Part shown: in pieces, positions 15,044 through 38,283 of the stretch
Layout: each line of letters begins with the position of its first letter
Position numbering within the stretch: position 1 is the first letter of the stretch
NCBI GenBank assembly: GCA_044348085.1
Contig: JBIKTM010000005.1
Span: 14,563-78,562, forward strand
From: Candidatus Methylacidiphilales bacterium
GTDB taxonomy: Bacteria > Verrucomicrobiota > Verrucomicrobiia > Methylacidiphilales > Verrucolacustridaceae
DNA: 64,000 nucleotides
Direction of reading: 5' to 3'
The notes under the pieces: generated by a model
Databases searched by the model: none
What the model was told of the DNA's origin: nothing
Seen by the model: the letters and a program-made list of their open reading frames with translations, nothing else
Translations under genes and position numbers: made by a program

Positions 15044-16411
15044 ATGGCATTTCGGTTTCCATGTTTGCTCGGGTTGATCTGCTTCAGCGGGGCTTTTGCC
15101 CAAGAAGGTAGTGTTCCTGTCTTTCGCTTAGGCATCGATGTATTAGCGGATCGGGGTTTTCAGGATTTGAGGGGAAAGCGGGTAGGGTTGGTGACGAACC
15201 CATCGGGAGTTGATGGGAAGGGAGTGCCGACTTGGCGAAGGTTCCGGGATGCTGAAGGCGTAAACTTAGTGGCTTTGTATGGGCCAGAACACGGGGTTTT
15301 TGGGAAAGTTGGTGCGGGAGATAAAGTTTCGGGTGAGAGGCACGGAGAGGATCAAAACCAAGACGGAAAAATTTCGAAGAATGAAGAGACGGGGATCAGG
15401 GTTTTCTCGCTCTATGGGGATACGAGGAAACCCACTCCCAAGATGCTGGATGGTGTCGATGTGCTGGTTTACGACCTCCAGGATGTGGGGTGTAGGTCGT
15501 ATACGTATATCAGCACATTGGGGTTGGTGATGGAGGCAGCACAGGAGAGGGGAGTCGAAGTAATGGTGTTGGATCGTCCGAATCCTCTAGGAAACTTTCG
15601 CGTGGAGGGTCCGCGTCCGCAGGGAGAAGGAGTCCTGACCTCCTTTATTGGGCAGTACGACATTCCTTATGTGTATGGGCTTACGGTAGGGGAGCTTGCC
15701 AAATGGATTAACGAAGTTCATTTGAGGCGCCCGTGTAGTTTGTCAGTGATTCCCATGAAGGGGTGGAATCAGAAGATGACTTGGGAGGATACTGGACTGA
15801 AGTGGGTTCCCACTTCACCCAATATTCCGATCACTCGTTGTGCGCGAGGGTACGTCGCAACTGGGTTCTTTGGGGAGTTGGGCGTTAGCAATGGAGCCAA
15901 TCCAACGGGAGTACCCACGACGGGGTTGGATGGAACGGTGGTTCAGCCGTTTGATATCTTTGCGCTCGAGAATGTGGATGCGGAGGAGCTTTGTCGGAAA
16001 ATGACAGAGTGGGGATTCAACGGGGTTAAGTTCACTCCGTTTCGCTTCAAACCGCCGACGGGTAAGTATCGATCCGTTGTCATGGCAGGGGCACGAGTCG
16101 CAATCGATCCGCAGGCTCCAGCTAATATTACGGCCATCAATATGGCGGGTCTGGAGTTTCTGAAAAAGCTTTTACCCAAAAAGAGGTTTTTCTCGGATGC
16201 GGAGAATATGTTGATGTTTGATAAGCTGAATCGAGGCCGACAGACAAGGAAGGCAGTTGAGGGGGGGATGAGCGCAAGGCAGATTGTGGCCAGTTGGGAT
16301 GTAGGTGTGGCTAAGTGGCGAGAAGAGAGAAAGCCGTACTTGCTGTATCCGGAGAGTCCATTGCCGACACGAAAAGTCCCGGCCACGGGGTCGGCAAGGC
16401 TCAAGCCGTAA
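15044..16411 (+). CDS. namZ: Exo-beta-N-acetylmuramidase NamZ (DUF1343) family protein, secreted
   Basis: Signal peptide; GKRVGLVTNPSG, YGPEHG, SLYG, DLQDVGCRSYTY, VLDRPNP, YGLTVGELA, WVPTSPNIP. Confidence 0.88.
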   Translation: MAFRFPCLLGLICFSGAFAQEGSVPVFRLGIDVLADRGFQDLRGKRVGLVTNPSGVDGKGVPTWRRFRDAEGVNLVALYGPEHGVFGKVGAGDKVSGERHGEDQNQDGKISKNEETGIRVFSLYGDTRKPTPKMLDGVDVLVYDLQDVGCRSYTYISTLGLVMEAAQERGVEVMVLDRPNPLGNFRVEGPRPQGEGVLTSFIGQYDIPYVYGLTVGELAKWINEVHLRRPCSLSVIPMKGWNQKMTWEDTGLKWVPTSPNIPITRCARGYVATGFFGELGVSNGANPTGVPTTGLDGTVVQPFDIFALENVDAEELCRKMTEWGFNGVKFTPFRFKPPTGKYRSVVMAGARVAIDPQAPANITAINMAGLEFLKKLLPKKRFFSDAENMLMFDKLNRGRQTRKAVEGGMSARQIVASWDVGVAKWREERKPYLLYPESPLPTRKVPATGSARLKP

Positions 16412-16416
16412 ATTTA

Positions 16417-16544
16417 GGTAGGGGCGGGTCTATAACCCGACTTTTCTGAGGGGTTTAGAAGTGCTATAAAGCATTGAAGAGGATGGTGTTAAAGAGGGGA
16501 TTAGGAAAGATGGAGAGATTTGAAAACGCTGCAAAAAAGCGAAG
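16417..16544 (+). repeat. Repeat A, copy 1 (5' of the Sel1 gene)
   Basis: By-hand ungapped alignment of 16433-16530 with 18917-19014 gives about 78/98 identities; starts with GTAG plus a CGGG..CCCG mini-hairpin. Confidence 0.9.
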
Positions 16545-16606
16545 TAAGAGGATTAACCTGTTTTTTTCAGTTCGCTACGGAAGAACTAGAAGGTAATGAA
16601 TTAATA

Positions 16607-17953
16607 ATGGAGCTAATGATTTTAAGAGGATTTGCTTTTCTCTTGTTCCTTGTCACATCCTCCCATTCAGAAGAAAAATATGAACTACAGAGCTATTCAC
16701 CGGAGCTTCTGAAAAAAGCAGAATCTGGAGATCCTAAAGCGCAGTTTTTGGTTGCAAAGTATTTACGGCTCGGGAAAGGAGTTTCTAAGAATGAGCACGA
16801 GGCCATAAAATGGTATATGCAAAGTGCCAAGCAAGGTCATACAAAATCCATGAACTCCTTGGGCGGGTACTATCTAGAAAATAAGGTTGATTCCCCGGAG
16901 ACAGATGCAGAAATCGCTAAAGCATTGCCTGAGATGTCATTCTCAATAGCGAAGAAAGATAAGAAGCAACCTCATAATCTTGAACAAGCCGTTTATTGGT
17001 TTTTCTTGGCGGCAGACGGAGGGAATCCACGAGCAAAAAGAAATATTGGTTTTTTATACAGTAAGGGGATTGGGCTGGAACAGAGCGATATTGATGCAGT
17101 TAAATGGTGGAAGGAGGCCGCTTTGGAGGGCGAAGTTTCTGCTCAATGTAATCTGGCCAACGCTTACCTAAATGGACGCGGATGTGAAAAAAACGAATCA
17201 AAAGCATTTGAGCTCATGTGTATGGCCGTCAACAAAACTCCCCAAGATGAAATCGACGAAAAAAATATAGCTGATGCTCAGGCCGAATTAGGTCGCTATT
17301 ATTATGAGGGTATAGGAACCAAAAAAAATCTAAACGATGTTTTCAAGTGGGCTACAAAGTCTGCTCAAAATGGATCAGCAATAGGTCAAAACAACCTTGG
17401 GAACGCTTATTACAATGGTTATGGAACCGAGAAAAATATATCTAACTCAATCATATGGTATCAAAAGTCAGCTGCACAAGGGAATGACGATGCCATGTAT
17501 CAATTGGGCTGGTTAAGCGCAAATGGAATCGGCCTTGAGAAGTCCAATGATAAAGCTTTTAGCTATTACAAAAAAGCTGCGGATAATGGAAACCGTGAGG
17601 CTCAAAATAACCTAGCTAACCTTTACTCAAAAGGGCTTGGCGTGCAAAAAAACGAAGCGGAAGCATTTCGTCTCTGGTTGAGATCATCTCTACAAACAAA
17701 CACCTTTGCGTTTGCGAATTTAGGTTTGTGCTATGAAAAGGGGACTGGTGTTAAAGTTAATATTTCCGAGGCCTTTCGTTGGTATGAAAAAGGCGCCTTG
17801 GCCGGTGAGCCAAGCGCGGAATACTATTTAGGCAGATGCTATGAAAGTGGTAATGGTGTTGATAAAAATCTAGATACGGCAAAGCAGTTGTATCTTAAGG
17901 CGGCGGACCAAGGGCTTAAGGAGGCAAAAGAGGCATTACGGAGCCTCGAATGA
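16607..17953 (+). CDS. Secreted Sel1-like repeat (SLR/TPR) protein
   Basis: About ten repeats of type AQxNLGxxYxxGxGVxxxxxxAxxWYxKAAxQG; hydrophobic N-terminus after M30/M33 of the ORF; AT-rich (sample line 17221: 24/60 GC). Confidence 0.92.
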   Translation: MELMILRGFAFLLFLVTSSHSEEKYELQSYSPELLKKAESGDPKAQFLVAKYLRLGKGVSKNEHEAIKWYMQSAKQGHTKSMNSLGGYYLENKVDSPETDAEIAKALPEMSFSIAKKDKKQPHNLEQAVYWFFLAADGGNPRAKRNIGFLYSKGIGLEQSDIDAVKWWKEAALEGEVSAQCNLANAYLNGRGCEKNESKAFELMCMAVNKTPQDEIDEKNIADAQAELGRYYYEGIGTKKNLNDVFKWATKSAQNGSAIGQNNLGNAYYNGYGTEKNISNSIIWYQKSAAQGNDDAMYQLGWLSANGIGLEKSNDKAFSYYKKAADNGNREAQNNLANLYSKGLGVQKNEAEAFRLWLRSSLQTNTFAFANLGLCYEKGTGVKVNISEAFRWYEKGALAGEPSAEYYLGRCYESGNGVDKNLDTAKQLYLKAADQGLKEAKEALRSLE

Positions 17954-17989
17954 GAATAAGTGTCATCTGAACGCTCCCATTCCTCAACC

Positions 17990-18120
17990 AATCCCCAACA
18001 AAACCCGTAGCAGAGAGGCCTGGCGGCCGAACCAAGTGGAAGGGGGCAGGTGGAAGGTGAAAGTTGGAAAGACTTTAAATTGACTGCGGCCTTCCACTTT
18101 CCACCTCCTGCCTTCCTGCA
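17990..18120 (+). repeat. Repeat B, copy 1: long imperfect hairpin 3' of the Sel1 gene; possible bidirectional terminator
   Basis: GGAAGGGGGCAGGTGGAAGGTGAAAG (18038-18063) pairs with CTTCCACTTTCCACCTCCTGCCTTCC (18091-18116); second copy at 19934-20071. Confidence 0.88.
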
Positions 18121-29210: not shown

Positions 29211-30005
29211 GTGATGATTCGCAAAGTTCCGGTTGCGCTGACCATTGCCGGATCCGATAACTCTGGCGGAGCTGGAATCCAGGCGGATCTAAAAACCTTT
29301 ACGCGCTTTGGGGTGTATGGAACGTCGGCTTTGACCTGTGTCGTGGCGGAGCATCCGGGAAGAGTTTCGAGAATCACGGCGGTTGAGCCAAGAATGGTGG
29401 CGGAGCAGATCAAGTTGGTCTTTGAAGCTTTTCCGGTGGGAGCGGTGAAGACGGGGATGCTGTTTTCGTCTGGAATCATAAGGCAAGTGGCGAAGCAGTT
29501 GGGAAAGAGAAGAGGGCTTAAGCTGGTGGTGGATCCGGTGATGGTGGCGACGAGCGGGGCGGCACTGCTCAAGCCGGATGCGGAGCGGGCGATGGCCAAG
29601 CTTCTGTTTCCCAAAGCGGTCTTGGTGACTCCGAATCTGGATGAGGCGGCCAGATTGGTGGGGAGGAAATTGAGAAATCCAGAGCAAGCTAAGAAGGCGG
29701 CCCGGGAGTTGGCAAAAAAATGGAAAGTGCCGTTTCTGGTAAAGGGCGGGCATCTGATGTTGGCGAAGGCGGAGGATTATCTGGCTTGGCCGAACGGAAA
29801 GTTGAAAACCTTCTCAGCGGTACGCTGTAAGGGGGTCGAGACGCATGGGACGGGGTGCACCTACTCGGCAGCGATCTGTGCTGGATTGGCTCAAGGGCTT
29901 TCTTTGGAAAAAGCTGTAGGGAAGGGAAAGAAGTTCGTCACGCGAGCAATTCGGGGCCATCTCAAATTGGGTCGGTATACGCCTTTAAATCATCTGAAAG
30001 CATGA
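29211..30005 (+). CDS. thiD: Hydroxymethylpyrimidine/phosphomethylpyrimidine kinase
   Basis: [52 protein letters not shown]. Confidence 0.96.
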
Positions 30006-32302
30006 AGACGAATTGGCCGATGCGTCGGCCTCTGTTTCCAGTGGCGGTGGCAGGATTGGTGGGAACGGTGATGGGTTTAGGGTGGGGACAAATTCCATGG
30101 ATTTGGCTTGGGGTAGCTGGAGTTGGATCGGTGTTCTCTTGGTGGGGTCCAAAAAAGTGGAGAACGCCTGCGACCTGGCTCTTTGTTCTTGGGGTGTTTG
30201 CTCTTTATGCGGGGGCTCGGGCCTATGCTCCGCCCCGGGAATCGTTGAAGGCGCGGGCTGGGCAGGAGGGTGGGACAGTGGAGGTCGAAGGTTGGATCGC
30301 TGAATTGCCGACGGAACGAATTTGGGAAAACGGGGGAAAAGCGATGGAGACCGAAATGGAGGTAATCTCTCTTTTTGGGGAAACAGGTTGGGAGAGGACA
30401 AGTGGCAGGGTGTTGTTACGAGTGGATCCGTCTCCAGAAAAAATGCCCAAGGTGGGAAATGTTGTTCGGCTAGTGGGATATCTGACTTTACCGGAAAGGC
30501 CGATGAATCCAGGGGAGTTTGATCGGGTTCGTCACCTGCAATCCAGGGGATTGGATTATATTCTTAAGGTCCGAACCCAAGATTTGGAAATAGTCGGGGA
30601 TCAAAGGGGAGTTTGGTTGGCACGAATGGCAGCGGGATTACGGTCGCATATGATACGGTCGACATCATTGGGATTGCAGGAGGATTCGGAAGCTTCGGGG
30701 TTGATTGCGGCAATGTTGTTTGGTTATCGAGATGGGGTGGGCGAGGAATTGAGGGAGGCTTTTCGCGCAACCGGTACGTTGCATCTGTTTGCTGTGAGTG
30801 GACAGAACCTAGCGGTGGTAGCGGGAATGTTGCTGTGGATTCTGGCACTGACGGGAGCGGTGAAGTGGAGATGGGCGTGGATGACTTTACCGGCGGTGTT
30901 TCTCTTTTGTTTGGCGACGGGGATGGAGGCGAGTGCAGCCCGGGCCTTTGTCATGACTGGGGTGCTTTATCTGGGGTGGATCTTGGGTAGGCCGATGGAT
31001 CCTGCAAACTGGCTGGGGGCGGCATTAATAGGATTGATGATCTGGGATCCGCGCCAAGTGGAAGATGTTGGGTTTCAGCTTTCATTTTTAGTCGTAGCTG
31101 GGTTGATGGTTTTTGCGGCTCCGATTCAAGCGAAGCTGGTGGGTTGGGGTAGGCCAGACCGGTGGATACCGAATCGGCTGGTGAGCGTCTGGAGGAGGGC
31201 GTGGTATCGAGTTTGGTCGACATTGGCAACACTTGTCGCTGCCTCGGTTGCGGCGTGGTTGGGATCGGTGTTGCCTGGGATCGTTCTGTTTCATCAGATC
31301 ACGCCGGTGGCTTTGGTGGCGAATGTGGTGGCGGCTCCGATTGCGGGAGCGGTTACTGTCTTGGCGGCGGTATCTTCGATGATGGCGCCTTTCTTTTCCG
31401 TGGGGGCGATCGGGATGAATCTTTTAAATGCCCGGTTGGTCCATTTGCTGGCGGGGGTGTTGGGGTGGATGGCGACTTGGCCAGGAGGCCATTTTTCCGT
31501 GGCGGATCCGAGAGTGTGGTTCGAGAATGGGCCGGCATTAGAGATTGTGGCTGTGGAGGGAGCTGCGCCCACCTTGGTGACAGGGGAAGGAGGTAAATGG
31601 TTGATTGAAACTGGATCCAAGATGGCTTGGGCCAATTCTGTAAGACCATTTCTGAATTATTATGGGGTGAATCGGTTGGATGGGGTGATGTTAACGGCGG
31701 GTTTGGCAAAACGATCGGGTTCCGCACAGGAGTTATTGGGGTCGATGCCCATTGGGTGGTGGGGGGAGTCCGGTATGGGTGGGAGATCAGGAGCTTTAAA
31801 GCAGTGGAGAATGGAGATGGTGGAAAGAAAAGAGGGGAGAAGGTTTTTCGGTGAAGGGGATCGTGCAGATTTGGGGAAAGATTGGACAGCGGAGGTGCTT
31901 TGGCCGCCGGACGGAAGCGCATCAGGAAGGGCAGAAGAGGATGGGTTGGTTATGATTCTAGAGTGTGGAGAGGCACGATTGCTTTGGGCCGGGTCAATTC
32001 CAAGGGGTGTGGAAAAGAAACTGGTGGAAAGGTATGGGGAGAAGTTGAAATCGGGTGTTCTTGTACAAGGACCCTCCAAGGATGTGAATCTTACGTCAGA
32101 ATGGTTGCGGGCTGTTCGTCCGAACTATTTGGTCCGTTCGTGGAAAGCTCTAGAGGATGATCCTTCCCTCTCGGTCGACTTGGATCAAATTTCAAAAGAA
32201 ATCGGGATGACCCTTGTGAAGTTAAAAGAAAGCGGGGCGGTCCAGTTGCGGCCCGAGCCTCAAAATGGAGGTTGGGCAGTCAGGAAGTGGCGACCGGAGT
32301 AA
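30002..32302 (+). CDS. comEC: ComEC/Rec2 DNA-uptake membrane channel
   Basis: NPGEFD, TGTLHLFAVSGQN, GFQLSF, multiple TM helices, C-terminal metallo-beta-lactamase-like domain; ATGA overlap with thiD. Confidence 0.9.
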   Translation: MKTNWPMRRPLFPVAVAGLVGTVMGLGWGQIPWIWLGVAGVGSVFSWWGPKKWRTPATWLFVLGVFALYAGARAYAPPRESLKARAGQEGGTVEVEGWIAELPTERIWENGGKAMETEMEVISLFGETGWERTSGRVLLRVDPSPEKMPKVGNVVRLVGYLTLPERPMNPGEFDRVRHLQSRGLDYILKVRTQDLEIVGDQRGVWLARMAAGLRSHMIRSTSLGLQEDSEASGLIAAMLFGYRDGVGEELREAFRATGTLHLFAVSGQNLAVVAGMLLWILALTGAVKWRWAWMTLPAVFLFCLATGMEASAARAFVMTGVLYLGWILGRPMDPANWLGAALIGLMIWDPRQVEDVGFQLSFLVVAGLMVFAAPIQAKLVGWGRPDRWIPNRLVSVWRRAWYRVWSTLATLVAASVAAWLGSVLPGIVLFHQITPVALVANVVAAPIAGAVTVLAAVSSMMAPFFSVGAIGMNLLNARLVHLLAGVLGWMATWPGGHFSVADPRVWFENGPALEIVAVEGAAPTLVTGEGGKWLIETGSKMAWANSVRPFLNYYGVNRLDGVMLTAGLAKRSGSAQELLGSMPIGWWGESGMGGRSGALKQWRMEMVERKEGRRFFGEGDRADLGKDWTAEVLWPPDGSASGRAEEDGLVMILECGEARLLWAGSIPRGVEKKLVERYGEKLKSGVLVQGPSKDVNLTSEWLRAVRPNYLVRSWKALEDDPSLSVDLDQISKEIGMTLVKLKESGAVQLRPEPQNGGWAVRKWRPE

Positions 32303-32309
32303 GTGAAAG

Positions 32310-32951
32310 TCAGGGTTGCAGAGGGCAACCGGCGGTGGGGGCTTGGGGAATTCCCGAGAGGCCTGGCAGGTCAGGAGAGAGAGGGGGGAGTTGGAGTCGG
32401 GAAAAGAGATCGTTCAAACCGGCCAGAGAGATTCCGGGCCAGATGGCAGAAACCAGGCCATCCGGTTGGGCGAGAATGAAGCATCCGGATTTGGTAATTC
32501 CCAAGCGGTGGCCGAGCTGGGAATAGGGATCCCGGAGGGCCGGAAGTTCTTTTCCGGTTTTTGTCATGAACTCATGAATCTGGTCCGGTGTTCCCGCGAA
32601 AAGAAAAAACCAGGTGGCTTTTGTTTTAGTCTTTTCCATCGCAACGGCGAAATATTTCGCAAACTCGAGACTGCAGTCGCAGTCGTGGGAAAAGAAAACG
32701 AATACCACGGGCTTTTCTTTGGGGAGTGAGGGCCATGGGACGACCTGGCCATCCATTCGATATAGGACGCTCTGGTGGATGTTTTGACCTGTCGATTGGT
32801 TAAGGGTTTGTAGGTCGGAAGGGGGGGAGGGATGACGGCGTGAGATCTTTTCGTTGGGAGCGGTGGGGGGGTTGGAATCGGGTCGGGTAAGCCCGTAGAT
32901 CAAGGCAGCCAGAGCGACGAGAAAGAGGGCGATGGGCCAGGGGGATTTCAC
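32310..32951 (-). CDS. Membrane-anchored thioredoxin-fold (AhpC/TSA/redoxin-like) protein with CxC motif
   Basis: N-terminal TM, KPVVFVFFSHDCDCS, LRDPYSQLGHRLGIT, C-terminal GCPL. GTG 32951 preferred to TTG 32981. Confidence 0.7.
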   Translation of the reverse strand: MKSPWPIALFLVALAALIYGLTRPDSNPPTAPNEKISRRHPSPPSDLQTLNQSTGQNIHQSVLYRMDGQVVPWPSLPKEKPVVFVFFSHDCDCSLEFAKYFAVAMEKTKTKATWFFLFAGTPDQIHEFMTKTGKELPALRDPYSQLGHRLGITKSGCFILAQPDGLVSAIWPGISLAGLNDLFSRLQLPPLSPDLPGLSGIPQAPTAGCPLQP

Positions 32952-32956
32952 GGGAA

Positions 32957-34369
32957 TCAGTGGGAGGGCATGGCGATCCAAGGAGGGACAACACTTCCCT
33001 GTATCCAGCCATTGCGGCGACGGACTTCATCCTCCGTGAGGCGGGGATCTTTCAGATAGATGTAGTAGTCGTCCTGCCTTTCGAAGAGGTCGCCTTTGGC
33101 TTCCCGGGTTTCGCTGACCACCATAGTACTGGTGATCCGAATGTGGAAATAACCACGGATCAGTTCATCATACTTTGACGGAAGCAGTCTGAATTGAAAG
33201 GGGATGAGGGTTTTAGTTGGGATAACTTCCCGGATCTTTGTGTCGGACCCCTCGGGAGTCTCATGAGGAACGGAATCCCAACGCCCGTTGGCCTGATAGA
33301 AAACACGGATGGAAGGGCCAAGGATAAAGAAGCGACGGGATGAGTCATAGTTTTGGAGGAACAGATTCGCACGGACATTACCGTCGCCATTGGCATCGAA
33401 GGAGTCCACATCGGCCCGGAGTTGGCGAAAGGCGATTTCCTCAGTGATGCGTTTCTTTTCCTGTTTCGCCCAAAGTTGGCGTCCTTGTGACCAGGCGATG
33501 ATCCGGTCAGTCGAGTAAAGGAGTGACGCTCCCAAAAGCAGGGTACCCAGAAAGAACGAGGCTGGCCCCCGCCAATCCCCGACGGGTGCGGGTTGGGGGG
33601 GGTCTTGGGTCGCCAATCCTTTGGGGGGTTTTTCGAAAACCGGCCCCTGCCTTTCGATCAGGGAAGAGCGAACAGGTGTGGCGGAGGGTTTTTCCGTGAG
33701 AGCTAATTGTCCAGCAGACATCTGGAATACTCGATCGGCAAGCGAGGCGAGTTGGTCGCCATGGGTGACGGCGAAGATCGCGAGTTTCCGTTCGTCCCGA
33801 AGTTCTTGAAGTACTTTGAGAATTTCTTCCTCAGCCAAGGGATCGAGATTGCTGGTTGGTTCATCCAATAGGAGAAGGGCGGGTCCATATTGGAGGGCGC
33901 GGGCCAGGGAGACGCGACGCTGTTGTCCTCCGGAAAGTTCATTGGGAAAGGAATCCCAACGTTCTCCCATCCCCAGACGGGTCAGAAGTTTTTGGGCCCG
34001 GGAGTAGGCCTGATGTTGGGATTCGCCGGTAAGCAGCCCCGGTAGGGCGGCATTATCTAGGGCGGTGAGTCCGGGAAGAAGAGAGTTGGTTTGGAGCATG
34101 AAGCCAATTCGGCGGGAGCGGAGTTGGGCAAGTTTTCGGGGGGAGAGTTGGAGGAGGTCCGCTCCCTCAAGGTGGAGTGTGCCCTGGTCGGGTCGGGCGA
34201 GTGCTCCCAAGAGGGCCATCAGGGTGGATTTTCCCGAACCGGAACGACCACAGACGGCGACGAATTCACCCGGCTGGATTTCTAGGGAAACCTGGTGGAC
34301 AGCGGCGATGGAACCCCGTCGGGCAGGATAGATCCGGCTGAGATTTTGGGCGGAGAGGATAACGCTCAT
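32957..34369 (-). CDS. ABC transporter ATPase (LolD/MacB type) fused to a TM helix and an extracytoplasmic domain
   Basis: Walker A GRSGSGKS, LSGGQQRRV, Walker B LLLLDEPT, then a linker, a hydrophobic helix and about 180 aa ending WIAMPSH. Confidence 0.9.
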   Translation of the reverse strand: MSVILSAQNLSRIYPARRGSIAAVHQVSLEIQPGEFVAVCGRSGSGKSTLMALLGALARPDQGTLHLEGADLLQLSPRKLAQLRSRRIGFMLQTNSLLPGLTALDNAALPGLLTGESQHQAYSRAQKLLTRLGMGERWDSFPNELSGGQQRRVSLARALQYGPALLLLDEPTSNLDPLAEEEILKVLQELRDERKLAIFAVTHGDQLASLADRVFQMSAGQLALTEKPSATPVRSSLIERQGPVFEKPPKGLATQDPPQPAPVGDWRGPASFFLGTLLLGASLLYSTDRIIAWSQGRQLWAKQEKKRITEEIAFRQLRADVDSFDANGDGNVRANLFLQNYDSSRRFFILGPSIRVFYQANGRWDSVPHETPEGSDTKIREVIPTKTLIPFQFRLLPSKYDELIRGYFHIRITSTMVVSETREAKGDLFERQDDYYIYLKDPRLTEDEVRRRNGWIQGSVVPPWIAMPSH

Positions 34370-35595
34370 TCGTTATTCTCCCGGAGAAGTTGGTAGACCT
34401 CACGGCCCGCAAGACGCCAGGAAGGAAGCAGGGCGCCGAGACCGGCGACCAGAGAGCAAAGGATGAGGCTCAGGAGAGCGGCAAAAATCTGGGAGGAGAA
34501 AGAGGGGAGTTCGAAGGTGATTCCGCGGGAGGTGAGGAGATATCCGAAAGTTCGGACGAAGACGGCCAGTCCGGTGGCACCCAGGAGAACGCCAAAAAGA
34601 GCACCCAGGAAAGCGCAGAGGGCGGCTTCCATTGCCAGCCACAAGGAGAGTCCCATTCGAGAAAGGCCCATAGCGAGGAGTAGTCCGAGTTCCGCTTTTC
34701 GTTCAGCCACGATCCCGGCGTAGACGACAAGAATGAGAAGTCCGCCCATCCAAAGGCCAACGATGGTGAATGCGATCGAGCCGGTTAGTATGGTTCGGAT
34801 CGATTGGCGGACCTGAATTCCGAGTCCAGATCCGCTAATGACCTGAACTTCAGGAACAGAGGAAAGGGCGAAACGGACATGTCCCGCCCCGGCGCCGGGC
34901 GACAAGCGAAGGAGAAGGGCAGAGGCGGAGCCGCTGACCGGAAGGGTTCCGAATGTTTGGACTCCGTGGGATCTGGATTCATTCGCAAGTTCGTCCACGG
35001 TAGAAAAAGATCCAAAGACTGATCGTTCTGTGGGGCCCACACCCGTTAGGTCGAGTTTTCCCCAGACGACCAAACTTTTTCCAAAGAAATTCATGGTTGA
35101 GCCCAAGGGTTCTGGTCGGCGTCCACCGATGAGGACATCGCCTTGGGAGAACGGGCGGGGCAGGTGTTCTCTGATCCAGGGTTGTAAGGTGAAATCAGTG
35201 GAAGGATCGAAGGCGATCAGGTCGGTTTCGCCATGGCCTTCATCCGAGGGGATGGAGAAGTGGCGTTGGAGGGAGACTTTTTCCAGCCCGGGGAGAGTTT
35301 CGATTTGTTTAAAAACCGATGGGTCAAGTTGAGGGGCGTTGGGTTCCCCCGTGAGAAGGGCGGCGGTTAGGTTGTGGGTAGTTCCTTTGGAGAGGATGAG
35401 AAGATCGGCCCCCAGACGGTCGAGGGAGGTTTCGAGTCCACGGCGAATCGAATCTCGAACGACCAGAGTGAGAAAGATCGAAGCGGAACCGATGGCGACG
35501 GCGAGTGCTAGAAGGAGGTAGCGACCGGGGCTTCGTCGGGTCTCCTGGAGGACCAGACGAAATCCTAAGGGGAAAAGGTGGAATCCGTGGGGCAG
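34366..35595 (-). CDS. MacB/FtsX-family ABC permease (start codon non-canonical or lost)
   Basis: Hand translation shows the frame open from 35613 to the stop at 34366. The N-terminal TM segment RRSPGRYLLLALAVAIG..LDRLGADLLIL lies upstream of the ORF-track TTG (35106). CTG 35595 taken as provisional start. Confidence 0.8.
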   Translation of the reverse strand: MPHGFHLFPLGFRLVLQETRRSPGRYLLLALAVAIGSASIFLTLVVRDSIRRGLETSLDRLGADLLILSKGTTHNLTAALLTGEPNAPQLDPSVFKQIETLPGLEKVSLQRHFSIPSDEGHGETDLIAFDPSTDFTLQPWIREHLPRPFSQGDVLIGGRRPEPLGSTMNFFGKSLVVWGKLDLTGVGPTERSVFGSFSTVDELANESRSHGVQTFGTLPVSGSASALLLRLSPGAGAGHVRFALSSVPEVQVISGSGLGIQVRQSIRTILTGSIAFTIVGLWMGGLLILVVYAGIVAERKAELGLLLAMGLSRMGLSLWLAMEAALCAFLGALFGVLLGATGLAVFVRTFGYLLTSRGITFELPSFSSQIFAALLSLILCSLVAGLGALLPSWRLAGREVYQLLRENNE

Positions 35596-35600
35596 GGTGG

Positions 35601-37196
35601 TTAGACCGTGCAGCTACGACTGAATTTCATCTCCTCCACTTTGGAGGGAACGATGACGCAGTCGTGGTGTCCGCCGAAGTTGGGCATATAGCCGACCTGT
35701 TCTAAAGTATCCTGCCGGAAGACAAAGGCGCCGGATTCCATTCGTTGGAATCCCGAAAAGATCACCAAGGCATATTTTCCATCATAGGTTGTGGCTGTGG
35801 TCTGAGTATCGACTCCGACATTTCGGAACTTTTTGACGACTTTCCAGTCCTTGGTGCTCACGACATAAACATCCGATTTCATCGGCTTTGGTCGGAGAAC
35901 GGTGAAGAAGCATTTTGAACCATCGATGGAGAAGTTGACGTGGAAGGGGGAGGGATATTCGCCCTGCCACTCTTTGTCCTTGATGAAGGTAACCCGCTTC
36001 CATGCCCGTGGATCGTCGCTGGAGGTGTCGAATACGGCAACGTTGTTGGCGCGTAGATTGTTCATCATAACCAGGTGATTGCCAGAAGGATTGAATCCGG
36101 TCTCGTGGATGGGGTTGCCGACGGAAGGTAGGGTGACTTCCCAGGTGTCCGGGCTGTTCGAGACTTTTTTCACGGGCCAGTTGTCAGCGAGACCTTCGTT
36201 CGCCATCACGTAGCAAACGGGCTCCATAGAGGTGCGGTCGATGATAAAACCGCCTCCGCACATGCGAAGGCCGGCGATGGAGTAGCGGTTGCGCGGGTCG
36301 TGCAGGCAAAAATCCAGACCCGTCAGGGTATGGGGGCTAGCACCAGGAGTTTGGCCTTTCTCGACGAGGAGTTCTGCCATGGGAGCCATCTCGTAGTTAA
36401 GTTTGTTTCCCTTCGTCCCGTAATAGTCGTACTTCCCGTCTTTTCCTGGGGCCAGTTTAATGAGTCGGATGGTTCCGCCCTTCGTCCAAGTTTCTGCCAG
36501 AACCTTCGAGTTGGGGACCCAATCGCCCCGGAAGGAGGTAAGGACTTTGGTTTTATCCTGGCCGCGGGCCCGGGAGAAAAATCCCACCACATCCTTCTGA
36601 CCGTCGGCGCAGGCAAAACCATTTCCATCTGGGAAAGGGACAGTATGGACGCCTAAACCGATTCCCGTCGTTTCGGAAACATCCTCAAGGAGTTCCATCT
36701 GATTTGATTTTCCATCGTACCCGACGCGGTAGATGTGATTCCCCATTCCGTATTTGTCGAGCATGCCGTGCTCTTTGATTTTCGTATTGAGGCCGTACAT
36801 TAGGACATTATCGCCACCTTGGGTGGAGTTAATGAATTCAAAGCCTTTGTAGGGGTCTCCGCTATCGGCATAGAAGGCAGCCAAATGGTGGGAGATCGGG
36901 CAGGAGTCCCCGTAGTTCCAGTAGGAAATCCATGAGAGGGTTTTTTGAGTTCCCAAATCGACGGCATGGGTTCCTCCGCCCAGCTTTTGTGGGGTGAGAT
37001 AGATATATTTTCCAAGGGATTCGCGGATGCCTTGGTAGACGGCATCTTCGATTAGGATCCCGTCTTCGTTTTTAGCGGCGTAGGAGGTACCAGGAAGGTA
37101 GCGGGTTAGACCGGCACCCGTAAGCCCGGCCAGACCAGCGAATCCGTAATAAAAGAAGCGACGACGGCTGATTTTTTCAAGGTGGGCATTCGACAT
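35601..37196 (-). CDS. Tat-exported thiocyanate dehydrogenase (TcDH)-like copper beta-propeller protein
   Basis: Twin-Arg signal SRRRFF. Motifs match TcDH as recalled: PQKLGG, WNYGDSCPISHH, DPYKGFEF, GLGVH, DGQKD, GNKLNYE, GLD, IHETGF, YPSPFH, TYDGK, GHHD. Confidence 0.88.
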   Translation of the reverse strand: MSNAHLEKISRRRFFYYGFAGLAGLTGAGLTRYLPGTSYAAKNEDGILIEDAVYQGIRESLGKYIYLTPQKLGGGTHAVDLGTQKTLSWISYWNYGDSCPISHHLAAFYADSGDPYKGFEFINSTQGGDNVLMYGLNTKIKEHGMLDKYGMGNHIYRVGYDGKSNQMELLEDVSETTGIGLGVHTVPFPDGNGFACADGQKDVVGFFSRARGQDKTKVLTSFRGDWVPNSKVLAETWTKGGTIRLIKLAPGKDGKYDYYGTKGNKLNYEMAPMAELLVEKGQTPGASPHTLTGLDFCLHDPRNRYSIAGLRMCGGGFIIDRTSMEPVCYVMANEGLADNWPVKKVSNSPDTWEVTLPSVGNPIHETGFNPSGNHLVMMNNLRANNVAVFDTSSDDPRAWKRVTFIKDKEWQGEYPSPFHVNFSIDGSKCFFTVLRPKPMKSDVYVVSTKDWKVVKKFRNVGVDTQTTATTYDGKYALVIFSGFQRMESGAFVFRQDTLEQVGYMPNFGGHHDCVIVPSKVEEMKFSRSCTV

Positions 37197-37272
37197 AGGA
37201 TCAATTTGTGTTTCGGGAATATAAGATCAAGAGTTAAAGCAATCCGGTGATTCGGACATTTTAACAAGTGTC

Positions 37273-38283
37273 TCAGCGGCGGAAGAAAAGGTGGTTGGAG
37301 AGGTAGTAAAGTTTTCCGGCTTGAAGGTGGAAGGATTCGGGAACCAGACTGACCTGAACTTTGGTGTTTGTATCCTGCTTTTGACCTAGGAACCTGAAAA
37401 GTCGGCTGAAGTGGAAGGGGGCTGTGTAGCGAATGACGGGTGCATCGACTGGGAGCTTTGCAATTTCTCGCGCGTCAGCGATTGCGTCTTGGAGGTATCC
37501 AGTGGCATCAACCAGTTTCAGATCCAGGGCTTGCTTGCCTGAAACGATCCGACCATCCGCCACCTGGGTTGGTAATTTATGGTCAGGAAAATCACGTTCG
37601 GTGACCACGATAGAGGAGAAGCGCTCAAAGGTTTCGGCAATCATATCTTGGACCAGTTTCTTTTCGGATTCTGAGGCGGGTCGGGCTGGATTCAGAAGGT
37701 CTTTGAGGGCTCCGCTTTTGAAGGTGAGGGTGGAAAGGCCGAGGATTTTGGAGAGCCCTTCGTAGTTCAGTGCTTGCATGATGACGCCGATACTTCCTGT
37801 GATGCAAAGTTCATGAGCGACGATGTGGGATCCGCCCATGGCGGTGTAGTAACCGCCCGATGCTCCGACTGAGTCGAGGTAGACGATCACGGGTTTATCT
37901 TCACGAACGAGGGTAAGTTCATGATAGAGGTTGTCGCTGGCGGTGACTTCGCCACCCGGGCTATCGATATGAAGAAGAATGGCTGCGACGGAATCGTCAT
38001 TGGCGGCCTGACGGATCTGGAGAATGACATCGTCGACCATGCTGGAACCAATTTCACCTGGGATTTCCTGAGCTATGACTCCAAAGAGGTCGATCTTGGC
38101 GATGCGTTTTTTCTGTGAATCGTCTCCTTCGACAAACTCTTCATCGAAGTAGGGGGCTGGTTGGACATGGGAGGAGTTGGAGAGCAGTTGATGGTCTTTG
38201 GAAAGGAAGAGGAGATTGGCGAGGAGGCTGCTTCCGAGCAGAATCAGGCCAACGATGAAAAGGAGTTTTGATTGGCGAGCCAT
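37273..38283 (-). CDS. sppA: Signal peptide peptidase SppA (S49)
   Basis: LHIDSPGGEVTASD, GASGGYY, TGSIGVI, KSGALKD, ADGRIVSG. Confidence 0.93.
   Translation of the reverse strand: MARQSKLLFIVGLILLGSSLLANLLFLSKDHQLLSNSSHVQPAPYFDEEFVEGDDSQKKRIAKIDLFGVIAQEIPGEIGSSMVDDVILQIRQAANDDSVAAILLHIDSPGGEVTASDNLYHELTLVREDKPVIVYLDSVGASGGYYTAMGGSHIVAHELCITGSIGVIMQALNYEGLSKILGLSTLTFKSGALKDLLNPARPASESEKKLVQDMIAETFERFSSIVVTERDFPDHKLPTQVADGRIVSGKQALDLKLVDATGYLQDAIADAREIAKLPVDAPVIRYTAPFHFSRLFRFLGQKQDTNTKVQVSLVPESFHLQAGKLYYLSNHLFFRR

Follow-up and report, generated by a model that had tools for sequence, protein, structure and literature searches.

The four genes that lie between comEC and sppA in a 64,000-nt stretch of Candidatus Methylacidiphilales DNA (contig JBIKTM010000005.1; hereafter the window) raise the question of whether a copper enzyme resembling TcDH, together with the genes that follow it, forms a system not yet described, and what such a system might do. 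An initial annotation had proposed the former, reading the locus as a copper enzyme of unknown substrate with dedicated ABC/redoxin partners in maturation or electron transfer. The arrangement that it described is present, with both flanks confirmed by Pfam: four co-oriented, translationally coupled minus-strand genes (~5 kb) that encode, in 5' to 3' order, a TcDH-like propeller, an FtsX/MacB-type permease, an ABC ATPase fusion and a CxC redoxin (Table 1). All four abut or overlap, as in the ATGA shared by permease and ATPase at 34366-34369 and the 25-nt overlap of ATPase fusion and redoxin at 32957-32981.

Table 1. Coordinates of the cassette, its genes and their parts, and the flanking genes, in window positions.
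Feature	Position	Strand	Basis or remark
ComEC	29855-32302	+	flank; Pfam-confirmed
Four-gene cassette, presence/absence polymorphism in genus	32249..37274 (5,026 bp)	.	empty site in G019 (L092)
Membrane-anchored ResA/TlpA/CcmG-like thioredoxin-fold protein, 223 aa	32310..32981	-	Pfam, profile, AF2, Foldseek
ABC ATPase fusion protein, 470 aa	32957-34369	-	ORF translation
Exported Ig-like beta-sandwich 'MPxH' domain, end W-I-A-M-P-S-H-COOH	32960..33502	-	alignment A2, AF2 model
Single TM helix joining ATPase to exported domain, ~residues 266-289	33503..33574	-	hydrophobic stretch in translation
ABC ATPase domain, LolD/MacB type, fusion residues 1 to ~226	33692..34369	-	Pfam ABC_tran E 5.8e-33
MacB/FtsX-type (type VII ABC) permease: TM1, periplasmic core domain, three TM helices	34366..35613	-	stop-to-stop frame, Pfam
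TcDH-family seven-bladed copper beta-propeller, Gln-482 clade, 531 aa	35601..37196	-	phmmer vs PDB, residue map
Codon for Gln465, equivalent to Cu3 ligand His482 of tpTcDH	35802..35804	-	alignment map
Tat signal peptide, residues 1 to ~41 (KISRRRFFYYG...SYA|AK; SRRRFF motif)	37074..37196	-	read from translation
SppA/S49	37273-38283	-	flank; Pfam-confirmed

Judged from its sequence, the first gene encodes a true TcDH-family protein that is predicted to be Tat-exported. Searching the PDB with phmmer aligned its residues 55-530 to 8yu5 (E 1.4e-127), 8q9x (7.8e-127) and 5f75 (8.5e-112), and BLASTP gave 44% identity over 473 aa to pmTcDH, the Pelomicrobium methylotrophicum TcDH that we take to be the 8Q9X enzyme. 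The kinship with TcDH drawn in the initial annotation is thus a real homology, and the low similarity that it had named as grounds for giving up the link proved, in alignment, to be high similarity instead. The N-terminus, KISRRRFFYYGFAGLAGL...SYAAK, reads as a twin-arginine signal, whose RR is invariant in alignment A1, so that fold, length and Tat signal are all shared with the TcDH (EC 1.8.2.7) of Thioalkalivibrio paradoxus (5F75, 5OEX) and with the 8Q9X enzyme. Against the published active-site list and numbering of 5F75 (PMC6504805), 13 of 14 residues are kept, comprising the copper ligands His135, His206, Asp314, His381, His437 and His528 (here H103, H184, D295, H364, H419 and H511) and the catalytic or cavity residues Lys103, His136, Glu288, Gln156, Phe436, Asp529 and Arg544 (here K71, H104, E269, Q126, F418, D512 and R527), and 13 of the 14 positions are near-invariant across 324 family sequences.

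What sets the protein apart from the characterised TcDHs is Gln at the Cu3 ligand His482, together with E365, L72 and four more clade-specific changes. Of the 324 family members, 243 have Q here, 79 have H and 2 have E, and in an IQ-TREE phylogeny, an analysis that the initial annotation had called for, the Gln sequences form one clade (100/100 support) that traces to a single H-to-Q change. This clade is nested among His-type sequences, a grade that includes both characterised enzymes, tpTcDH and pmTcDH, and the window protein falls inside the clade and apart from those two. Seven substitutions including H482Q are diagnostic of the clade, and the six others include Glu (E365) for Gln beside the Cu1 ligand His381 and Leu (L72) for Phe beside the catalytic Lys103; cysteines are also enriched at positions 99 and 513. 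Because a copper ligand is changed and second-shell changes co-vary with it, substrate or copper nuclearity may differ in the clade. Calling the substrate unknown was therefore a fair caveat, but its basis is a different one, the replacement of His482 by Gln throughout the clade, a point that the initial annotation did not draw on here. Engineered H-to-Q variants of TcDH exist in the PDB (6sji, 8yu5), and we found no report of activity for any Gln-type enzyme in the literature searched. On the tree, the Gln-482 clade is a large, widespread, monophyletic and uncharacterised branch of the TcDH family. Its hosts live in lakes and soils and are not sulfur oxidisers but heterotrophs, methanotrophs, cyanobacteria and Melainabacteria; one locus (L046) is from a thiocyanate bioreactor metagenome. 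The origin of the clade from a His-type grade holding both characterised enzymes supports thiocyanate as the ancestral substrate, and in Afipia a distant 489-aa homologue has been linked to the breakdown of thiocyanate (PMC8061750).

Turning to the helper genes, the permease is longer than the 246 codons first assigned to it, as its reading frame runs for 415 codons without a stop (34366-35613). The 494-bp gap downstream of the TcDH gene is only apparent, because the frame extends 169 codons further upstream, and these codons encode TM1 and the MacB periplasmic core domain and have evolved under purifying selection (pN/pS 0.17-0.20 against relatives). No in-frame ATG, GTG or TTG occurs upstream of 35106; an ancestral TTG start, kept in relatives L011-L018 and L042-L045, is TTC in the window, and translation likely starts at CTG (35613 or 35595). 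RNA contigs run across the TcDH stop into the permease frame. The Pfam match to FtsX (34.8 bits) is over its cut-off and that to MacB_PCD (24.8 bits) slightly below the 27-bit cut-off, while homologues in L001 and L086-L088 match both families. Residues 1-224 of the ATPase match NCBIfam MacB (E 7e-58) and LolD (E 1.9e-57) at the level of the domain, below the full-length equivalog cut-offs. The cassette accordingly resembles the type VII ABC systems MacB, LolCDE and FtsEX in its MacB/LolD-class ATPase, FtsX domain, 1+3 TM topology and periplasmic core domain; it differs from them in the extra TM helix and exported domain of its ATPase, and has no adjacent TolC-type or adaptor gene.

That exported domain, which we call MPxH after the motif that forms its C-terminus in 57/57 loci, is modelled by AF2 with a pLDDT of 91.4, and is preceded by a linker region modelled as one long helix (A2 residues 13-62). 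Its invariant residues are Y407, H409, M467 and H470, with no Cys among them, as defined in alignment A2 (38 sequences from several phyla, where H155, M213 and H216 correspond to residues 409, 467 and 470). It matches no Pfam family; Foldseek against the PDB returned generic Ig-like folds only (TM < 0.5) and no copper chaperone in the top 50, and CopC, CusF, PCuAC, NosL and Sco were matched neither in sequence (Pfam) nor in fold (Foldseek top 50). The redoxin shares a membrane anchor and thioredoxin fold with ResA, CcmG and TlpA but has CxC (C101, C103; DCDCS) where CxxC is expected, and its C-terminal extension holds one more invariant Cys, C219 (in GCP). CxC is kept in 40/41 homologues, and the invariant cysteines are C42, C44 and C160 of alignment A4. 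Its Pfam matches (AhpC-TSA, Redoxin) are weak; a profile search against the PDB found ResA (E 9e-8), aligning CxC to CEPC minus one residue, and the AF2 model (pLDDT 94.6) resembles ResA, DsbF and DsbE in Foldseek at TM 0.62-0.76. The translation begins with a hydrophobic N-terminal helix, and the protein does not resemble Sco. The invariant His, Met and C-terminal His of the exported MPxH domain and the ResA/TlpA-like character of the redoxin both support a link to copper.

Surveying related loci, we found that the three partners co-occur with the enzyme's homologues across phyla, as anticipated, and that this grouping is far beyond chance: the permease directly follows the TcDH-like gene in 72/80 loci drawn from seven or more phyla, the ATPase fusion is found in every related locus with enough downstream sequence, and the redoxin is adjacent in 41. 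No other gene family is conserved in these neighbourhoods, and no gene for further sulfur oxidation is conserved nearby. The MPxH domain is missing genome-wide from six Gln-type genomes (Methylococcales, Nitrospirota; positive control 4/4) and three further loci have no adjacent ABC, so the helpers are not universally required. The redoxin is missing from Melainabacteria and cyanobacterial loci and from His-type operons, although the ABC-MPxH part is kept there.

The ABC partnership is nonetheless not undescribed, as the initial annotation had it, for classical TcDH operons already contain the ABC genes and an MPxH-type protein. In four His-type operons (L086, L087, L088 and L091) TcDH is followed by MacB_PCD/FtsX permease and ABC ATPase genes and then by a single-pass MPxH protein, a stand-alone version homologous to the C-terminal domain of the ATPase (blastp 1e-28), and the published Thioalkalivibrio operon (Berben et al. 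2017) comprises MacB/FtsX-type ABC genes and a membrane-anchored hypothetical protein (PMC5328954, PMC5744179). These genes rise 4.5-6.8 log2-fold together with TcDH when Thioalkalivibrio thiocyanoxidans grows on thiocyanate, and its authors recognised no metal-binding domain among the ABC proteins (PMC5744179). Window and Thioalkalivibrio/His-type operons thus share TcDH followed by a MacB/FtsX-type permease and ATPase, plus the MPxH sandwich, but the window has one permease/ATPase pair rather than two, has MPxH fused to the ATPase rather than separate, adds the CxC redoxin, and has no second hypothetical protein, sigma-54 two-component system, copCD, fccAB or cytochrome c. The partner genes are to that extent less novel than the initial annotation supposed. 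The fusion already occurs in one basal Gln-clade locus. Elsewhere, TcDH loci adjoin copCD (PMC5328954) or Cus genes (PMC6504805).

We further found this streamlined form of the TcDH operon to be a mobile four-gene cassette. In a same-genus genome (G019, L092) whose flanks are 95-96% identical to those of the window, sppA and comEC are 49 bp apart and exactly the cassette interval is missing (alignment blocks at window 41218-37275 and 32248-27000, 49 bp in between), so the cassette was gained or lost as one unit. The TcDH-like gene is present in 18/25 genomes of the genus and in 0/16 genomes of other genera in the order. The host is a heterotrophic lake-water verrucomicrobium with a 2-Mb genome. 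The initial observation that cyanase and cytochrome c genes are lacking nearby extends further: no cyanase gene occurs anywhere in the genome (93% complete), and the cassette's contig encodes no CxxCH protein. Neither fcc nor copCD lies near the cassette, and another contig (C33) encodes an ACIII-like pentahaem protein and the cbb3 subunits FixO/FixP. With a host that has no cyanase and hosts that are not sulfur oxidisers, the benefit of producing cyanate and sulfur is questionable, which counts against thiocyanate.

What, then, might the cassette do? We give roughly even chances to a reading in which a TcDH-type copper oxidoreductase has an altered Cu3 site and is assisted by a periplasmic machine that uses ATP to build its copper centre; the substrate and the helper role are what we infer. 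The Gln-clade enzyme would keep TcDH-type chemistry, a two-electron oxidation, at the remodelled cluster, of thiocyanate or a closely similar small anion (sulfur or pseudohalide), with electrons going to c-type cytochromes and the cbb3 oxidase of the cell; nothing pointed to the electron-transfer role once suggested for the partner genes. MacB-type ABCs (MacB, LolCDE, FtsEX) act as mechanotransducers, performing work on the periplasmic side, and the ABC-MPxH complex may likewise use cytoplasmic ATP hydrolysis to load or repair the copper cluster of the apo-enzyme once this has reached the periplasm, with Cu(I) carried by the invariant His, Met and C-terminal His of MPxH. TlpA is a reductant for the copper sites of Sco and CoxB, and the CxC redoxin could similarly keep cysteines or copper reduced. 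Against this reading stand the genomes and loci in which helpers are missing, the want of any copper-chaperone match for MPxH, the Thioalkalivibrio ABC proteins with no metal-binding domain recognised in them, and RNA coverage that is far better for the enzyme gene than for the helper genes. Such machinery would play a part like that of NosDFY/NosL in the assembly of nitrous oxide reductase, another Tat-exported copper beta-propeller enzyme that has an ABC system and partner proteins in the periplasm. The likeness would be one of function and not of descent: NosFY is of ABC-2 type and NosD a beta-helix, whereas the cassette has a MacB/FtsX-type ABC and an Ig-like sandwich. A bolder version, which we hold only tentatively, is that the Gln-482 clade is a functionally distinct copper enzyme (other substrate or nuclearity) common in lake bacteria, and that the MacB-type ABC with MPxH, fused or separate as in classical operons, represents a novel class of machine that assembles metal centres in the periplasm at the expense of ATP. 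If true, this would make it a non-homologous counterpart of NosDFY.

The evidence also bears on three other readings. The fixed H-to-Q change at a copper ligand, six further diagnostic substitutions (two beside catalytic or ligand residues), the enriched cysteines at 99 and 513, and lake and soil hosts that are not sulfur oxidisers, with no cyanase in this genome, would all suit a clade that has ceased to oxidise thiocyanate, acting on another substrate or through a two-copper site of different chemistry, in a cassette that merely resembles TcDH. We find this rather improbable, since the K103/H136/E288 triad, the cavity residues Q156, F436, D529 and R544 and 6/7 copper ligands are invariant, which argues for the same reaction geometry; Gln is also able to ligate copper, and the clade has one locus from a thiocyanate bioreactor metagenome.

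Rather than assembling copper, the helpers might handle product, the redoxin taking up, as persulfide or trisulfide, the zero-valent sulfur that TcDH turnover deposits on the cluster and the ABC-MPxH complex stripping it or moving it away in LolCDE-like fashion. MacB-type ABCs do extract or expel periplasmic substrates, and the redoxin has three invariant cysteines. In Thiohalobacter and Guyparkeria, a sulfur-accepting role has been suggested for a thioredoxin-fold protein encoded beside TcDH (PMC6504805), and the co-induction of helpers and enzyme on thiocyanate (PMC5744179) would fit as well. Yet ABC-MPxH occurs without a redoxin in Melainabacteria, cyanobacterial loci and His-type operons, the invariant His, Met and Tyr of MPxH, with no Cys, suit metal better than sulfur, and no conserved downstream sulfur-oxidation gene lies nearby, which together leave sulfur handling unlikely. 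Least probable by far is a role chiefly in copper homeostasis, with propeller and helpers sequestering, oxidising or exporting copper in the periplasm instead of turning over a sulfur or nitrogen substrate. MacB-type ABCs frequently act as exporters, and the basal Gln-type gene of Tautonia sociabilis does lie within a copper-resistance island (two multicopper oxidases, CopB, Csp, an outer-membrane efflux protein and a P-type ATPase), but a copper enzyme is equally expected beside copper-supply genes, the other 80 or more loci have no copper-resistance genes nearby, and the non-ligand catalytic residues, unnecessary for copper handling, are all kept. Lake metatranscriptome contigs cover the TcDH-like gene, revealing that it is expressed in lakes, with the enzyme gene covered far better than the helper genes.

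To our knowledge, thiocyanate dehydrogenase (TcDH) is the only enzyme with its kind of three-copper site, and studies of it have been limited to a few sulfur oxidisers. The initial annotation had called the window enzyme a TcDH homologue, an identification that stands, as it matches the solved TcDH structures over residues 55-530 (E 1e-127 to 1e-111) and shares 44% identity with the 8q9x enzyme. Solved structures were needed to place the propeller because Pfam and NCBIfam searches gave nothing meaningful, the sole match being hydrazine synthase beta at 14.8 bits. Comparing the enzyme with the active-site list published for 5F75 of Thioalkalivibrio paradoxus (Lys103, His135, His136, Gln156, His206, Glu288, Asp314, His381, His437, His482, His528, Asp529, Arg544; PMC6504805) plus Phe436, we found the same residue at all positions except the Cu3 ligand His482, which is Gln465 in the window; the engineered PDB chains 6sji and 8yu5 have Gln there too. 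Neither the activity of an H482Q enzyme nor any Gln-type homologue was the subject of a paper in our literature search. In Afipia, a distantly related His-type protein of 489 aa has been implicated in thiocyanate degradation (PMC8061750), so thiocyanate oxidation is probably ancestral for the family.

Among the matches listed, comprising 324 full-length family members, position 482 was Gln in 243, His in 79 and Glu in 2, a biased sampling drawn from the best 120 matches each to Gln-type and His-type queries, and the remaining active-site positions were near-invariant. Gln-type hosts are lake, soil and reactor bacteria, not sulfur oxidisers. An IQ-TREE phylogeny of 46 dereplicated sequences placed all 28 of its Gln sequences in one clade (support 100/100), nested within a grade of His sequences that holds both characterised enzymes; on these sequences the H/Q pattern is explained by one change, overturning the four changes of a first FastTree of the 324 sequences. 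The cassette enzyme belongs to this distinct clade of the TcDH family, which has six further diagnostic substitutions (L72, E365, S423, L434, S441 and R485), with L72 replacing the Phe beside Lys103 and E365 the Gln beside His381. Cys99 and Cys513 are enriched in the clade as well, and we rejected the idea that they track the redoxin, both cysteines being present in redoxin-free lineages too. A 50%-identity representative library proved unusable for splitting His-type from Gln-type members, its clusters being mixed and most of the hits being fragments. Gln-type homologues of 591-592 aa (P0064, P0073, P0078, P0091, P0093, P0102, P0111 and P0113) possess an N-terminal extension before the Tat region that matches PF01527 (transposase-type helix-turn-helix); either their start was mis-called or the fusion is an unusual one.

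The four minus-strand genes proposed between comEC and sppA were confirmed, all abutting or overlapping, and the claim that they co-occur with their homologues also held, with the permease immediately 3' of the TcDH-like gene in 72 of 80 related loci and the ATPase fusion at each related locus with sufficient sequence. Carriers span Verrucomicrobiota, Planctomycetota, Myxococcota, Melainabacteria, Cyanobacteriota, Acidobacteriota and others, and the redoxin adjoins the TcDH-like unit in 41 loci, downstream in verrucomicrobia and upstream in planctomycetes and Myxococcales. When the 973 ORFs of the flanks were clustered all against all, no further neighbour turned out to be conserved, be it a cytochrome c, a cyanase, a regulator or a sulfur-oxidation gene. 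In a same-genus genome with flanks 95-96% identical (locus L092), sppA and comEC are separated by a short gap that lacks exactly the cassette, and neither direct repeats nor mobility genes were seen at the cassette junctions. An RNA contig from metatranscriptome run X26 carries the empty-site junction sequence, ending at window position 32247, so that cassette-positive and empty alleles seem to coexist in lakes; these natural strains, which at this site differ only in having or lacking the cassette, lend themselves to direct comparison. Of 25 same-genus genomes, 18 carry the enzyme gene, as do 0 of 16 from the order's other genera; the gene's closest relatives are planctomycete (~75% identity), which suggests that it was acquired horizontally. 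The four genes act like one mobile unit. Promoter and terminator scans gave matches at chance level only. In lake metatranscriptomes the enzyme gene is covered by contigs of depth 10-66 that barely touch the helpers, contig depth being a poor expression measure and DNA carry-over being possible.

Coordinates of the cassette, its empty counterpart and features at compared loci
Feature	Location	Coordinates	Strand	Remark
TcDH-like enzyme	window	35601-37196	minus	
Permease	window	34366-35613	minus	415 codons open
Permease upstream region	window	35107-35613	minus	169 codons
Conserved CTG codons	window	35613; 35595	minus	
ATPase-MPxH fusion	window	32957-34369	minus	
Redoxin	window	32310-32981	minus	
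Cassette	window	32249-37274		5,026 bp
Housekeeping flank, one side	window			LpdA-like, ThiD, ComEC
Housekeeping flank, other side	window			SppA (S49), TilS, FtsH
sppA-comEC gap	L092	3945-3993		49 bp
Copper island	L089	795-13344		Tautonia sociabilis
YtkA-domain protein	L088	17368-17781		PF13115
YtkA-domain protein	L091	16737-17156		PF13115

At His-type loci the gene order is TcDH, a MacB_PCD/FtsX permease, an ABC ATPase, a second permease (L088 and L091 have two at this place), a further ATPase and at least two hypothetical proteins, ending with a histidine kinase, a sigma-54 regulator or both. The same arrangement has been published for Thioalkalivibrio (PMC5328954), where thiocyanate raises the expression of the four ABC genes, and of a hypothetical protein that has a single N-terminal TM helix, by 4.5-6.8 log2-fold along with TcDH (PMC5744179). 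Because the TcDH-ABC partnership was thus already published, though unexplained, calling the cassette an undescribed system was too strong; seemingly new are the clade with Gln at position 482, the fusion of MPxH to the ATPase, a permease lacking a canonical start codon, and the cassette's clean presence/absence polymorphism. In L088 and L091, on Nitrospirota-like contigs, the ABC genes of the His-type operons are followed by an extra YtkA-domain protein and a third FtsX permease.

The first hypothetical protein of the His-type loci corresponds to window ATPase residues ~285-470 (blastp 1e-28 to 7e-12) and has a C-terminal MPPH. Compared with the His-type and Thioalkalivibrio operons, the Gln clade has this MPxH protein fused to the ATPase, already so in a basal Gln-clade locus, and keeps a single permease/ATPase pair. 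The exported MPxH domain was modelled (pLDDT 91) as a long helix and an Ig-like sandwich for which Foldseek gave no informative structural relative; its invariants include Tyr407, His409, Met467 and the C-terminal His470, and MPxH is the C-terminal end in 57/57 homologues. The cassette carries a fused single-pair ABC-MPxH partner together with a ResA-like redoxin of the ResA/DsbF/CcmG-type fold, in which the CxxC of that type is replaced by CxC and another Cys, the third, is also invariant.

The permease gene predicted by the initial annotation is present, its length requiring correction to the longer open frame. The upstream region encodes the first TM helix and MacB-type periplasmic core domain and contains no ATG, GTG or TTG. 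Where the TcDH proteins of relatives are 91-95% identical, the permease frame has a TTG at about its 11th codon, which is the ancestral state; the window's sublineage has TTC instead, with two CTGs conserved. Given these CTGs, purifying selection on the upstream region (pN/pS 0.17-0.20) and two metatranscriptome contigs that pass from the TcDH gene over its stop codon into the permease frame, the gene is full length and its translation probably begins at CTG via translational coupling. According to the Thioalkalivibrio paper, there are related permease entries whose annotation omits the N-terminal helix (PMC5744179), which may be the same start-annotation problem.

The Gln-type enzymes of Methylococcales (L069, L071, L074, L076, L078, L079) and Nitrospirota (L054) have no adjoining ABC-MPxH module, and a search of the whole genomes of L069, L071, L076, L078, L079 and L054 (positive control 4/4) found no MPxH domain anywhere. 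Methanotrophs possess an elaborate copper supply of their own, and we speculate that this may make the ABC-MPxH helper dispensable. Three other loci have no adjacent ABC, the Tautonia one lying inside a copper-resistance island. This island (L089) holds a basal Gln-type homologue with no adjoining ABC or MPxH gene, and its other genes encode two multicopper oxidases, CopB, Csp (a copper storage protein), a P-type ATPase and an efflux protein of the outer membrane. The Methylolobus gene is flanked by genes for a protein of the GDPD family, one with a TIR domain and others without a Pfam match.

To interpret the cassette, we propose that the enzyme, although its Cu3 site is remodelled, would retain chemistry of the TcDH type, that the helpers, working like NosDFY/NosL and by MacB-family mechanics, would build or repair the periplasmic copper cluster through mechanotransmission powered by ATP, and that the His/Met tail of MPxH could act as copper carrier. 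The Thioalkalivibrio papers explicitly leave cluster assembly open (PMC5328954, PMC5744179), and the fusion, physically joining a formerly hypothetical protein to an ABC ATPase, provides a concrete testable model of it. That the Gln-482 clade has instead changed function or substrate is favoured by its altered copper ligand but opposed by its otherwise near-invariant active site, and we consider it rather unlikely; testing thiocyanate oxidation by Gln-type enzymes would reveal either widespread thiocyanate/cyanate turnover in freshwater heterotrophs or a second chemistry in the family. That the helpers are machinery removing the sulfur product seems to us quite unlikely, and copper homeostasis would be a very improbable role for the enzyme and its helpers. 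Returning to a TcDH-type oxidation, the genome encodes an ACIII-type pentahaem protein and cbb3 oxidase cytochromes, and therefore electron acceptors exist; no cyanase was found in the genome (93% complete), so that cyanate use via CynS is not possible. The genome also encodes a Sco1/SenC homologue, and no PCuAC was found in it. Sulfur auxotrophy as a motive for scavenging thiocyanate sulfur was unsupported, a sulfite/nitrite reductase gene being found.

The window (C36:14563-78562, C36 being contig JBIKTM010000005.1) comes from a 2.03-Mb genome in 69 contigs. Near-identical loci occur in lake-water MAGs labelled Verrucomicrobia subdivision 6 or Candidatus Methylacidiphilales, one of them a closed 2.05-Mb chromosome, and many lake-water metagenomes contain the stretch. 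Across the whole window, GC skew of the plus strand is strong, uniform and positive in every 2-kb bin (0.11-0.39), persisting in regions with minus-strand genes, and a single bin (16001-18000) has low GC (0.44).
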